Positions 2,936 to 5,444 of a stretch of DNA of 5,444 nt are shown piece after piece. Position numbers and translations under genes: made by a program. The notes beneath the pieces were generated by a model. The model saw only the letters and a list, made by a program, of their open reading frames with translations, searched no databases and was not told where the DNA came from. The stretch is from a virus (lineage: Duplodnaviria > Heunggongvirae > Uroviricota > Caudoviricetes), in the IMG/VR virus record IMGVR_UViG_2693429642_000001, positions 1 through 5,444 of that record; one strand, given 5' to 3'. Every line of letters begins with the position of its first letter. Within the stretch, counting starts at the first letter, position 1.

Positions 2936-3229
2936 TCAGTCATTACTGATAGCGCCATAGCGTGATCGGTAATTACGCAGGCGCGGGTCAATTTCAGGGA
3001 AGTGGGTATATGTGGCTTTGCGGAATGGTCGGATTGATGTCTGGTAAATTCGCTCGCGTTCTTCTTTCTCTGCAAGCCATATACAATGGCGAAATTCCTT
3101 TTCCTCTTTCGTTTCCTGCGGTAGCGACATTATCCGGTCGTAGTTTTTTCTGAATTTATCCAGCACCTCCGATACGGAATTGCCGGAACAGCGGCGCGCG
3201 TCGTCCGCACCATAGAGAGGCGCTGGCAT
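2936..3229 (-). CDS. hypothetical prophage protein (97 aa), highly charged
   Basis: ATG at 3229..3227 preceded by AGGAGA with a 5-nt spacer, 13 nt downstream of the ssb stop. No family recognised. Confidence 0.5.
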   Translation of the reverse strand: MPAPLYGADDARRCSGNSVSEVLDKFRKNYDRIMSLPQETKEEKEFRHCIWLAEKEERERIYQTSIRPFRKATYTHFPEIDPRLRNYRSRYGAISND

Positions 3230-3242
3230 GATTTTCTCCTGA

Positions 3243-3749
3243 TTAAATTGCGTGAATAGCGTGACGAGGGAAGGGGAGAGTTACTGGTGCAAAGGGTATA
3301 TCGTCGTCAAAATCCATCGGAGGTTCGTTGTGTTGTGCTGGTGATGATTGCTGCTGTGGCTTCTGTGATTGCCTGCTGGCTGCTTGTTGTTTGCTGTCGC
3401 CAATGCCGCCAAGCATTTGCATCACGCCATTAATTCCGACATGAACCTCGGTTGTGTAACGGTCTTGCCCTGACTGGTCTTTCCACTTTCTGGTTCTCAG
3501 CATTCCCTCGAAATAAATCTGATCACCTTTTTTCACATACTGCCCCACGACCCCAGCCAGTTTCCCGGATACAGCAACACGATACCATTCAGTCAATTCC
3601 TTTTGCTCGCCAGTATTTTTATCTCGCCATTGTTCTGACGTGGCTATTGTCAGGTTAGCGAACGCTGTACCTGATGGTGAGTATCGAACTTCCGGGTCTT
3701 GTCCTACCCGACCAAGGATAATCACCTTATTTATCCCGCGAGAACTCAT
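3243..3749 (-). CDS. ssb: single-stranded DNA-binding protein (phage-encoded SSB) with 15-residue C-terminal extension
   Basis: Protein aligns by eye with E. coli SSB: [23 protein letters not shown]..., ...TEWYRV..., ...[18 protein letters not shown]..., Gln/Pro-rich linker, acidic tail [11 protein letters not shown]. Start chosen as ATG 3749..3747 (AGGTGGAG Shine-Dalgarno 4-5 nt upstream, matches the E. coli SSB N-terminus) rather than the track's GTG at 3758. ATG overlaps the HNH gene's TGA stop (ATGA). Confidence 0.85.
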
Positions 3750-4213
3750 TTGCTCCACCTCTTGCCAGTTTTTATGTTGCTTATAATTGATTGAGATACA
3801 CCCATGTCTTTTGCTATCTTGTACTGACTCTCTTTTTCAGAGAGTCTTTTCCTGATTTCTATAACCTGCCACTCTGTTAATTTTGCACCATGATGAGCAT
3901 GACCTTTTTTTGCTCCACGATGCCTTCCTTTTGCTATCTTGTCGTCCATGTTTTCTTGCGCGCTACCTAAAAAGAGATGTTCAGGATTAACGCAGCATGG
4001 GTTATCGCATTTGTGGCAAACCATCTTCCCAGATGGGATGGGGGAGTGATAAAGCTCAAAAGCAACCCGATGAGAAAGCATTGTTACGCCAAAGGCTACA
4101 AATTTTGTGTATCCTCCTTTGTTTTTTGAATAGGTAGACTCCCAGCAACCTGTTGTTTCATTAACTTTGTAGCTGGACTCGAATCTTTTAATAATTCCGT
4201 CCAAGTGAGACAT
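3746..4213 (-). CDS. HNH endonuclease (phage homing-endonuclease-like) with C-terminal helix-turn-helix-like region
   Basis: Protein contains GCWES...GY...HRVAFELYH... and [26 protein letters not shown], the classic HNH signature; C-terminal [13 protein letters not shown]...[21 protein letters not shown] looks like an HTH. ATG 4213..4211 directly follows the annealase TAA stop. Region is visibly AT-rich compared with flanking genes. Confidence 0.8.
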
Positions 4214-4921
4214 TTATGCCGCCTGTTTTAGTTCGTTAACTCTGATGTTCATTACATGAACGCATTTAGCCTGCGCATCCTCATTGCCAGCCATTAATTG
4301 CCAGTCATGCTGATAACGTTCGATGAGTTTTTTCTTGTCAGTTTCTGTCGACGCATAATCGCTGAAGTCTTTCAGGATTTGTTCGCAGTCAACCGATGGA
4401 GATTTCTGGTTGGTATTTTCTGGTGATGGTTGATTGCCAGATGCTGGTATTGCCCATCCCGGCAGCGATGGAGGGGACCAGTAAAATCCTGTTCCATCCT
4501 TAAGTTTTTCCCTGTGCCATCCCTGCTTTTTATCGAGAGATGTTTGTGCGAAACCTTCCTCAAGGTTATACAGATACCGACCGATTCCCCACTGAACGGC
4601 AGCGCGCTTCATTGCACTGGAACGACCACCTTTTACGGCTTCTACCTGCGTGTTTTCAGCAGCATCCCATTTGGTTACCCATTCGGAATCAATCCTGATT
4701 GATATGCCGCATTCAACGCCTCCGTTGTTGGGAATATCGCGGTATTCATTGCGCCATCCTGCTTTGCCGCAAACATCGTCCAGGCGTTTCATGATTGCCC
4801 TGTTCGTGACATAAGCCAGCACCATAGCCCACACCTTTCCATCGCGTGTTTTACCGCTTTGCTGTATTCGCCATTCGATATCTTCAGGGCTGAATGGCTC
4901 ATCGAATTTATTCAAATCCAT
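4214..4921 (-). CDS. Rad52/Rad22-family single-strand annealing protein (phage recombinase, Sak-like)
   Basis: ATG 4921..4919 with AGGTGA Shine-Dalgarno 4-5 nt upstream. Protein has Rad52-family hallmarks (...GKVWAMVLAYVTNRAIMKRLDDVCGKAGWRNEY..., ...EAVKGGRSSAMKRAAVQWGIGRYLYNL...), comparable to the G-x-G...KEA.TD..KRALR.FGN core of Rad52. Adjacent to ssb, as in phage recombination modules. Confidence 0.7.
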   Translation of the reverse strand: MDLNKFDEPFSPEDIEWRIQQSGKTRDGKVWAMVLAYVTNRAIMKRLDDVCGKAGWRNEYRDIPNNGGVECGISIRIDSEWVTKWDAAENTQVEAVKGGRSSAMKRAAVQWGIGRYLYNLEEGFAQTSLDKKQGWHREKLKDGTGFYWSPPSLPGWAIPASGNQPSPENTNQKSPSVDCEQILKDFSDYASTETDKKKLIERYQHDWQLMAGNEDAQAKCVHVMNIRVNELKQAA

Positions 4922-4929
4922 AATTCACC

Positions 4930-5100
4930 TCAGAATGGACATAGCCCAAGGAAATAACGCTGATTTAATACTTCGACTCGGGACAAATTAAGGCATACCC
5001 GCATTCCTTCGCGGTCACCATTATGGCGATACCAGAGAGCTTTCTGCGTGTATATGCGTCTCTGTAACTTGCTCTCCTTCACTGTGGTTGCAAGTGACAT
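4930..5100 (-). CDS. small hypothetical ORF (56 aa) directly upstream of the annealase gene; coding status uncertain
   Basis: ATG 5100..5098 with GGAGA about 7 nt upstream; TGA stop 8 nt before the annealase RBS. The track's longer version (start 5136) begins inside the IS terminus and is rejected. Contains many rare codons (AGA, ATA, CGG, CGA, CTA), so it may be non-coding or a remnant. Confidence 0.3.
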   Translation of the reverse strand: MSLATTVKESKLQRRIYTQKALWYRHNGDREGMRVCLNLSRVEVLNQRYFLGLCPF

Positions 5101-5174
5101 GAATATCTCCTGAGGTAGCCTGAGTTTAACGGACACTCCTTCCTGAAATAGAATGGCATCAGAAGGAGCTAATA

Positions 5175-5444
5175 ATGAGCAGAAAAACCCAACGTTACTC
5201 TAAAGAGTTCAAAGCCGAAGCTGTCAGAACGGTTCTTGAAAATCAACTTTCGATCAGTGAAGGCGCTTCCCGATTATCTCTTCCTGAAGGCACTTTAGGA
5301 CAATGGGTTACCGCCGCCAGAAAAGGGCTCGGTACTCCTGGTTCCCGCACGGTGGCTGAACTGGAATCTGAAATTCTGCAACTGCGTAAGGCGTTAAATG
5401 AAGCTCGCCTTGAGCGAGATATATTAAAAAAAGCAACAGCGTAT
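5175..5444 (+). CDS. IS3-family transposase OrfA (IS600-like), partial at 3' end
   Basis: ATG 5175 with AAGGAG 6 nt upstream; translation MSRKTQRYSKEFKAEAVRTVLENQLSISEGASRLSLPEGTLGQWVTAARKGLGTPGSRTVAELESEILQLRKALNEARLERDILKKATAY has the N-terminal HTH and leucine-zipper-like region of IS3-family OrfA; matches my recollection of IS600 OrfA. Confidence 0.85.
   Translation, partial: MSRKTQRYSKEFKAEAVRTVLENQLSISEGASRLSLPEGTLGQWVTAARKGLGTPGSRTVAELESEILQLRKALNEARLERDILKKATAY
5426..5433 (+). other. putative programmed -1 ribosomal frameshift slippery site (A7G) for OrfAB transposase fusion
   Basis: Run AAAAAAAG at 5426..5433, read in frame as TTA AAA AAA GCA near the end of orfA, which is where IS3-family elements carry their A6G/A7 slippery motif. 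The downstream stimulatory structure and orfB are outside the window. Confidence 0.5.

Follow-up and report, generated by a model that had tools for sequence, protein, structure and literature searches.

A conserved C-terminal tail, proposed to mask the acidic tip, in SSB proteins from temperate phages and ICE-like elements in Enterobacterales

The window, i.e. the whole 5,444-nucleotide stretch of phage DNA analysed here, carries on its minus strand genes in the order Rad52-like, HNH_3, ssb and abc2, which is that of a lambdoid/P22-type recombination module. The gene for a Rad52/Rad22-like single-strand annealing protein (4214..4921; Pfam PF04098, E=1.5e-25) is followed by an HNH_3-type endonuclease gene (3746..4213; PF13392, E=1.1e-13), which is missing from most relatives, the Rad52-like gene there abutting ssb. 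The ssb coding sequence (3243..3749; 168 amino acids plus TAA; PF00436, E=5.8e-35) runs from ATG 3749..3747 to TAA 3245..3243, with its start overlapping the stop of the upstream HNH_3 gene (ATGA) and its stop 13 nt upstream of the ATG of the anti-RecBCD gene abc2 (2936..3229; PF11043, E=5.6e-63). A longer open reading frame call (3243..3758) starts at an upstream GTG, but ATG 3749 is preferred, since it fits the 168-residue coding sequence annotated in phages mEpX2 and epsilon34. The window SSB is 98% identical to the annotated SSB of mEpX2 and 90% identical to that of epsilon34, and its position between the annealase and anti-RecBCD genes, an order also seen in these two phages, is the one that 'SSB-1' proteins take in lambdoid Rec modules.

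The protein follows the E. coli chromosomal SSB (1eqq/4mz9) in its OB fold, its disordered linker and an identical final canonical motif, but the motif is not final here. The OB-fold DNA-binding and tetramerisation domain (residues 1-112, 3414..3749; Pfam match over residues 6-104; phmmer to 1eqq, E=2e-55) is modelled by AF2 as OB-type strands and a helix, with pLDDT of about 81-88 over most of residues 11-80, while residues 107-168 are predicted to be disordered (pLDDT about 30). This disordered part includes a Gln/Pro-rich linker (residues 113-142, 3324..3413) and the canonical acidic tip with its DDDIPF motif (residues 143-153, 3291..3323), the last codon of which, Phe153, is 3293..3291. 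In E. coli SSB the chain ends at this Phe and its free carboxylate has a part in the docking of partner proteins, whereas the window SSB continues for 15 conserved residues (154-168, codons 3290..3246) before the TAA at 3243..3245, so that the acidic tip is internal. Query residue 153 pairs with the last residue of the E. coli chain in 1eqq, where the alignment stops, and the 15 residues thus lie truly beyond the canonical end; translation of the reading frame and this alignment agree in confirming the original prediction of 15 in-frame codons after the tip at these positions. Among solved SSB structures no extension past the tip was found.

This particular copy of the gene looks degenerate. 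It differs from its nearest relatives, loci L003 and L007, by three bases, one synonymous and two that change the protein, CAT>TAT giving H56Y (3582..3584, minus strand) and GAG>GGG giving E66G (3552..3554, minus strand), and both replacements are private to the window, His56 and Glu66 being present in every one of the roughly 300 other loci fetched. Tyr56 takes the place of the conserved tetramer-interface histidine, His55 in E. coli SSB, and H55Y is the classic ssb-1 allele, which causes unstable tetramers and temperature sensitivity (PMC11947617). The right end of the window (about 5100-5444) is IS600, and the best match among complete E. coli genomes covers no more than 64% of the window, from which we conclude that the prophage is probably degenerate. 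The decay that had been suspected on first reading is thus probably real for the copy, given the IS600 and the two private substitutions, but it does not extend to the tail, to which H56Y and E66G are unrelated. Loss of a stop codon in one decaying prophage, or a sequencing error, might seem to suit an interrupted element whose ssb has acquired two damaging-looking changes; its probability as the source of the tail is nevertheless negligible, because the nearest relatives and viable phages have identical tail DNA, and the tail is present in hundreds of independent genomes.

Tailed SSBs of 168 amino acids are annotated in the plaque-forming phages mEpX2, HK75, mEp235, epsilon34 and g341c. In a search of 5.8 billion sequences the 15-residue tail follows IPF in about 110 of the best 120 protein clusters, which come from Escherichia, Salmonella, Klebsiella, Citrobacter, Enterobacter, Kluyvera, Pluralibacter, Phytobacter and others. 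It recurs in frame and at constant length in 139 fetched loci, with the consensus [AS]P[VI][TG]L[PQ][FY]P[RK]Hx[IV][HY]x[IL]-COOH, and its intact junction with the tip is found in 297 of 5,426 complete E. coli genomes. The window tail is the majority form and conforms to the wider pattern of the clade, ..L/F-x-F/Y-x-R/K-H/x-x-I/V-H/Y-x-I/L-COOH in the 15-16 residues that follow IPF. Diverged prophage tails appear among the matches listed in a sample of one genome per species, in Tatumella (APIGLQHPAHFIYSI), Mixta (AYIGLQYPSHAIHSI) and Xenorhabdus (APIGKQYPNHTIYVI); the matches listed are mostly housekeeping ssb genes and under-sample the taxonomic spread of the tail. A second type of tail, [LI]GFGYG..[RK].AI[HY]A[LI](S), belongs to ICE-like loci with DUF3577 and topoisomerase III. 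After clustering at 50% about 13 of the nearest 150 SSB representatives have some extension after IPF, several of these beginning AP; examples are APIGLQYPALLSVM, APVPFY and AQVPYLAGI.

Housekeeping SSBs do end at the Phe, as had been expected: among the matches listed the tip Phe is the last residue of all 72 tip-ended SSBs (Trp in one case), and 69 have exactly DDDIPF as their end. A divergent uvrA-like gene lies beside 51 of these 72 and beside none of the eight extended SSBs listed, and the housekeeping ssb next to uvrA never carries the tail among those matches, unlike the ssb of the window. Extended SSBs are specific to mobile elements, being found only beside phage or ICE-type genes in the data examined. 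That many prophage SSBs share a conserved extension is the outcome that the original prediction had itself named as refuting it, and these sequence comparisons show that the tail is an inherited, selected trait of the SSBs of temperate phages and ICE-like elements in Enterobacterales, not a lost stop.

The boundary between tip and tail is in addition an insertion point. Alignment of occupied and empty alleles places at 3290..3291 (minus strand), between the Phe153 and Ala154 codons, the empty site of a free-standing HNH gene of the Sf6 gp26 type, and the window accordingly has the empty-site allele, in which DDDIPF is unchanged, the tail runs through without a break and abc2 follows directly. 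Occupied alleles are those of loci L055, L057 and L075-L079 and of phages Sf6 and Huey; among the IMG/VR relatives nearly all SSBs of the clade that end ...DIPF are followed, 8-16 nt on, by an HNH reading frame of 155-159 amino acids. This frame is Sf6 gene 26, also present in IME10, N7, CurroJimenez and Huey; it has the motif CxxC...HHCDYSKP..VMWLC..CH and its product ends ...HKHNKPIYPDE(E/A) followed by 14 residues of the ssb tail. As the HNH gene lacks a stop codon, its frame carries on through the final 14 codons of the gene it interrupts, the homology to the uninterrupted allele restarting at the second base of the Ala154 codon (uninterrupted junction ...GACGACGATATACCCTTT|GCACCAGTA..., occupied allele ...GACGATTCGGATATTCCGTTC-TAG). 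The GenBank record of Sf6 remarks that gp26 has 14 contiguous amino acids identical to a stretch in an E. coli SSB protein, which is the only earlier notice of the tail that was found. One gp26-type gene behind ssb has a diverged tail, ...ISVPLRAKQAIRAI.

A reverse origin, in which the tail would have belonged natively to the end of the HNH protein and would be left on SSB as the scar of a deletion, was rejected, as HNH homologues from unrelated Pectobacterium and Klebsiella phages end near ...NKPIY without it, which assigns the tail to ssb; other gp26-type genes behind ssb with different ends, and the co-variation of diverged tails with diverged SSBs, also count against it. Occupied and empty alleles differ in the tip itself. 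All 60 distinct HNH-linked alleles have altered tip codons (DDSDIPF, DDEIPF, DSDIPF, DDQIPF, DDPDIPF), and all 67 distinct extended alleles are free of those changes (63 DDDIPF, two DDDVPF, two YDDIPF), a division that would be expected of a free-standing homing endonuclease that targets the adjoining conserved sequence and to which its carrier is immune. Free-standing homing endonucleases with 'intronless homing' include the T4 seg and mob genes. The likeness to these lies in an HNH gene held at a fixed point by a conserved target, with private substitutions in the adjacent target codons of the occupied alleles; the difference lies in an HNH frame that lacks its own stop and runs in frame into the interrupted gene. 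Of the complete E. coli genomes, 101 have the HNH::tail junction and 297 the intact one. SSBs of the tailed clade that lack the tail are found in the viable phages Sf6 and Huey, and in locus L080, from which the tail DNA is entirely absent; in some contexts, then, the tail can be dispensed with.

Across 75 distinct extended genes, with all tail classes taken together, pN/pS is 0.18 in the OB fold, 0.49 in the linker, 0.06 in the tip and 0.37 in the tail, the buried tip being the most constrained part of the gene. When distinct tail haplotypes of the PVTL class are joined in a minimum-spanning tree they are separated by 15 synonymous and four non-synonymous changes (omega about 0.10), and two independent copies of APIGLQHPAHFIYSI differ by six synonymous and no non-synonymous changes. 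Replacements in the tail are conservative (I/V, H/Y, F/Y, A/T/S/C) and its length is constant at 15 residues, although the linker nearby has many substitutions and indels. These substitution patterns indicate constraint on the tail, weaker than that on the tip and only moderate when all classes are considered. In E. coli and Salmonella phages the DNA of tip and tail forms a 97%-identical island, the OB-coding parts upstream being 53-87% identical and the genes downstream unrelated, and one DNA haplotype is common to 107 of the 139 tails in SSB context, so that part of this uniformity reflects recent recombination, not independent selection; pS in the tail (0.14) is below that of the rest of the gene.

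Several specific roles were tried and set aside. Tail-coding RNA from five loci folds no better than shuffled sequence (z-scores +0.7 to +2.1), so that neither RNA structure nor an anti-Shine-Dalgarno hairpin controlling abc2 or exo explains the conservation. Beta-clamp-binding motifs have the form QL[SD]LF or QLxLxL; PVTLPF has no Gln, and the other classes (PIGLQY, GFGYGV, GLGASF) do not keep the pattern. Docking of the tail on the OB fold was likewise discarded, as the AF2 monomer model leaves the tail disordered. Predicted disorder across residues 107-168 is what would be expected of a short linear motif.

We propose that the tail is a disordered C-terminal peptide that both caps the DDDIPF tip and provides a new docking peptide, a reading to which we give somewhat less than an even chance. 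By making DDDIPF internal the tail would leave its Phe without the free alpha-carboxylate of which ExoI, RecQ, PriA, chi and other SSB-interacting proteins of the host make use in their pockets. The phage SSB would then coat recombination and replication intermediates while recruiting the host SSB interactome less or not at all, and since the operon also neutralises RecBCD, an SSB uncoupled in this way would suit phage recombination intermediates. The hydrophobic and basic new C-terminus would dock a partner that all these elements share, for which a host protein or SSB itself is the likeliest candidate and not the neighbouring annealase. The tail is a non-essential addition: in about a quarter of the E. 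coli carriers the putative homing HNH gene splits it off, and SSB then has the usual ...DIPF end. In structures of SSB-Ct complexes the terminal Phe is engaged both by its phenyl ring and by its negatively charged carboxylate, and the carboxylate of Phe177 has a share in the binding of partners (PMC6393309); E. coli SSB with GFP at its C-terminus binds ssDNA normally but loses ExoI and is dominant negative when supplied from a plasmid (PMC7293020). These two observations make masking plausible, and we reasonably infer that the tail would weaken or abolish the docking of host SSB-interacting proteins.

Capping by itself does not account well for the data, as the conservation of the tail is sequence specific, the tip that it buries is very strongly conserved (pN/pS 0.06) and the tail is seemingly constrained on the HNH protein too (20 synonymous against 12 non-synonymous changes). 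The constraint on the HNH copy would fit a portable peptide function better than pure capping of the tip, and it is this, together with the conservation of tail and tip, that leads us to propose a docking peptide in addition to capping. The masked tip may keep an intramolecular role, or may bind partners that tolerate an internal motif. In a fuller version, which we regard as rather unlikely, the tail would cut the element's SSB off from the host interactome or make it a mild dominant-negative poison of the hub, and would also be a portable address peptide for a conserved host factor, for which reason the HNH nuclease would keep the peptide in frame.

The strongest competitor to capping with docking, although itself improbable, is that the tail is a C-terminal degradation tag of the ClpXP type, which would keep a phage SSB prone to dominant-negative effects, and the HNH protein that captures the tail, short-lived. 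ClpX signals of this kind include MuA ...RRKKAI and ssrA ...YALAA, and the tail end ...R-H-A-I-H-A-I-COOH has what we take to be a loose resemblance to both. The extreme C-terminus is indeed the best conserved part, with a basic residue 6-8 from the end and then [AT]-I-[HY]-[ASV]-[IL]-COOH, a pattern that spans the tail classes and the ICE-type extensions, and the apparent constraint reaches a second, unrelated protein in HNH, where the diverged tail of locus L243 still ends ...AIRAI. Over-produced SSB with a blocked C-terminus is toxic (PMC7293020), so a short half-life could help. However, the likeness to known degrons is loose, and the conserved first half of the tail (PVTLPF or PIGLQY) would be left unexplained. 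A slightly smaller share of probability goes to the view that the tail has no protein function and is the translated boundary of a DNA feature, namely an HNH homing site or co-conversion tract coinciding with a mosaic recombination joint. The near-identical island of tip and tail between divergent upstream and unrelated downstream sequence, the single haplotype that dominates it, the low tail pS, a site that is a proven HNH insertion point and the existence of tail-less phages would all follow from it. A homing site by itself, though, puts no selection on the host gene, whereas diverged tail DNA has changed mostly at synonymous positions (15:4 and 6:0) with conservative replacements, and the frame and the 15-residue length are kept as far as Xenorhabdus and Tatumella with no frameshifts or early stops.

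The original prediction gave weight to the neighbouring Rad52-like annealase, and a tail that tunes contact with this protein would be in keeping with cognate pairs in which SSB C-termini are used, Sak4 with the HK620 SSB (PMC5928155) and Red-beta with SSB-Ct (PMC6393309). A Rad52/ERF-like annealase does adjoin 77 of 79 distinct class-A tails, the window included. Against such a special tie the same or closely similar tails occur beside AAA_24 (Sak4-like) proteins (L081, L090, L308), RecT (L088, and L314 with RecT and YqaJ), ERF (L144) and a DUF3799 nuclease module (L309), and in the ICE-like loci with DUF3577 and topoisomerase III, and at least 65 distinct loci combine the same Rad52-like annealase (91-97% identical) with an SSB that lacks the tail. 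The co-occurrence with several annealase types rules out a handle specific to one of them and makes a host protein or SSB itself the more likely partner; we regard tuning of the Rad52-like annealase as very improbable. A little less credible still is a pro-peptide that is cleaved after Phe153 to free the canonical tip at the right time or place. It would explain a canonical tip perfectly preserved ahead of the tail and an HNH insertion that yields a functional SSB by falling exactly at the Phe/Ala boundary, but the latter is more simply understood if SSB has to stay functional, the site is not known to have a protease or cleavage motif, and a mere leaving group needs no constraint in its C-terminal half.

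The closest described relatives of the window SSB are the SSB-1 proteins of lambdoid Rec modules, such as Sf6 gp27 and the ES18 SSB, which share its family and its position relative to annealase and anti-RecBCD genes (PMC12315714); this 2025 survey describes SSB-1 proteins as lacking experimental study. Sf6 gp27 ends ...DDSDIPF with the gp26 HNH gene at the junction of tip and tail, whereas in the window the site is unoccupied and the tail is present. A blocked SSB-Ct has a single experimental analogue, the engineered SSB-GFP (PMC7293020), in which the tip is likewise not terminal, but the block there is an artificial 27-kDa fold and here a natural, conserved, disordered peptide of 15 residues. 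HK620 SSB is, like the window protein, an SSB of a phage Rec module, and its C-terminal residues mediate the cognate interaction with Sak4 (PMC5928155); it is of an unrelated type, and unlike the window SSB it has a terminal NDYPPF tip with no extension beyond. A full-text search of the literature with the tail sequence gave no match, a literature search found no paper on an SSB extension past the acidic tip in prophages, and keyword look-up in the epsilon34 genome paper and in PMC12315714 returned no mention of the tail. Although the database entries are open to all under the plain name SSB, neither a conserved, capped tip nor the way in which a homing nuclease interacts with it appears to have been described.

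In the accepted view the last residues of SSB, with their free Phe end, act as a hub to which over a dozen proteins of genome maintenance are recruited. That this motif should be kept letter for letter and yet be buried by a 15-residue tail in widespread SSBs of mobile elements would surprise a specialist in these proteins, and it is a common feature, not an exceptional one, as about 5% of complete E. coli genomes have a member of the tailed group, and so do epsilon34, HK75 and other classic phages. The question is directly testable, since nature provides matched pairs in the tailed and the HNH-split alleles. If the tail blocks or redirects docking, the element's SSB would insulate recombination intermediates from host nucleases and helicases, or would disturb the host hub. 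If true, this would bear on phage recombination, on the pairing of annealase and SSB in recombineering and on the sensing of phages by defence systems that monitor SSB.

In phage Sf6, in Huey and in many related loci (L055, L057, L075-L079, L083, which is Sf6, L086, which is Huey, and L167-L243), a free-standing HNH gene of the Sf6 gp26 family, encoding 155-159 residues, lies exactly between the IPF codon of the ssb tip and the codons of the tail. The corresponding site in the window is empty and falls between 3291 and 3290. In occupied alleles the ssb stop codon is provided by the inserted HNH gene, whose own reading frame continues in frame through the former ssb tail codons, so that the final 14 residues are common to two unrelated proteins, an identity that is noted, without explanation, in the Sf6 GenBank record.

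Occupancy by the gp26-type gene is perfectly associated with the sequence of the tip itself (window equivalent 3291..3314) across about 130 distinct ssb alleles. All 60 distinct occupied alleles carry an altered tip, i.e. DDSDIPF, DDEIPF, DSDIPF, DDQIPF or DDPDIPF, and such changes are absent from all 67 distinct alleles with an uninterrupted tail, which read DDDIPF (63), DDDVPF (2) or YDDIPF (2). This pattern looks like target-site immunity to a putative homing endonuclease directed at the tip-coding DNA. Two SSBs, P0003 (Kluyvera georgiana) and P0004, combine the occupied-type tip NFDDEIPF with an intact tail, which may be the footprint of HNH loss or a resistant empty allele.

Comparison of window positions 3243..3323 with loci L082, L244 and L256 shows about 60-70 nt of tip and tail DNA that are 97% identical, while the part of the same ssb alleles coding for the DNA-binding OB domain is only 53-87% identical and the downstream genes are different. 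By these comparisons the tip and tail DNA is a mosaic boundary or gene-conversion island, with the HNH insertion site at its centre.

A second endonuclease gene, of HNH_3 type and unrelated to the gp26-type HNH, lies between the annealase gene and ssb (3746..4213, minus strand), its stop overlapping the ssb start (3749) as ATGA. It is missing in most relatives of the window, and the SSB N-terminus is MSSRGINKV in the window and in 16 of 16 other loci carrying it, the usual form being MASRGVNKV. The gene resembles a further insertion of the homing type, linked to changes in the sequence beside it. In L080 (2671..3299) the SSB ends at NFDDEIPF, and the gene after it, of HNH_3 type, shares 35% identity with the window HNH; no trace of tail DNA was found between this ssb and abc2, and this SSB is a fully tail-less derivative.

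The window ssb differs from its nearest relatives at three positions in all, two of which, Tyr56 (3582..3584, minus strand; equivalent to the tetramer-destabilising H55Y of E. coli ssb-1) and Gly66 in place of Glu (3552..3554, minus strand), are each unique among about 300 fetched loci. An IS600 (IS3 family) stretch, 99% identical, adjoins the recombination module at about 5100..5444, and no complete E. coli genome matched more than 64% of the window. Together these last two results suggest an IS-disrupted, mosaic cryptic prophage.

Extension beyond the tip is also seen in other settings. SSBs of ICE-like loci (L089, L091, L096 and L135 on genome contigs, and L112), in which a DUF3577 protein and topoisomerase III are encoded upstream of ssb, carry a different 15-16-residue extension beyond DDDIPF, of pattern [LI]GFGYG..[RK].AI[HY]A[LI](S), whose likeness to the phage tail is confined to its own C-terminal half. 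Short, unrelated post-IPF extensions, e.g. APVPFY, AQVPYLAGI, APYLSRKGYIV and SNYELRSVI, occur in diverse SSB cluster representatives (P0133, P0134, P0148, P0181, P0215, P0218, P0219, P0223, P0224, P0231 and P0249). Capped SSB tips may be recurrent outside the tailed clade to which the window protein belongs.
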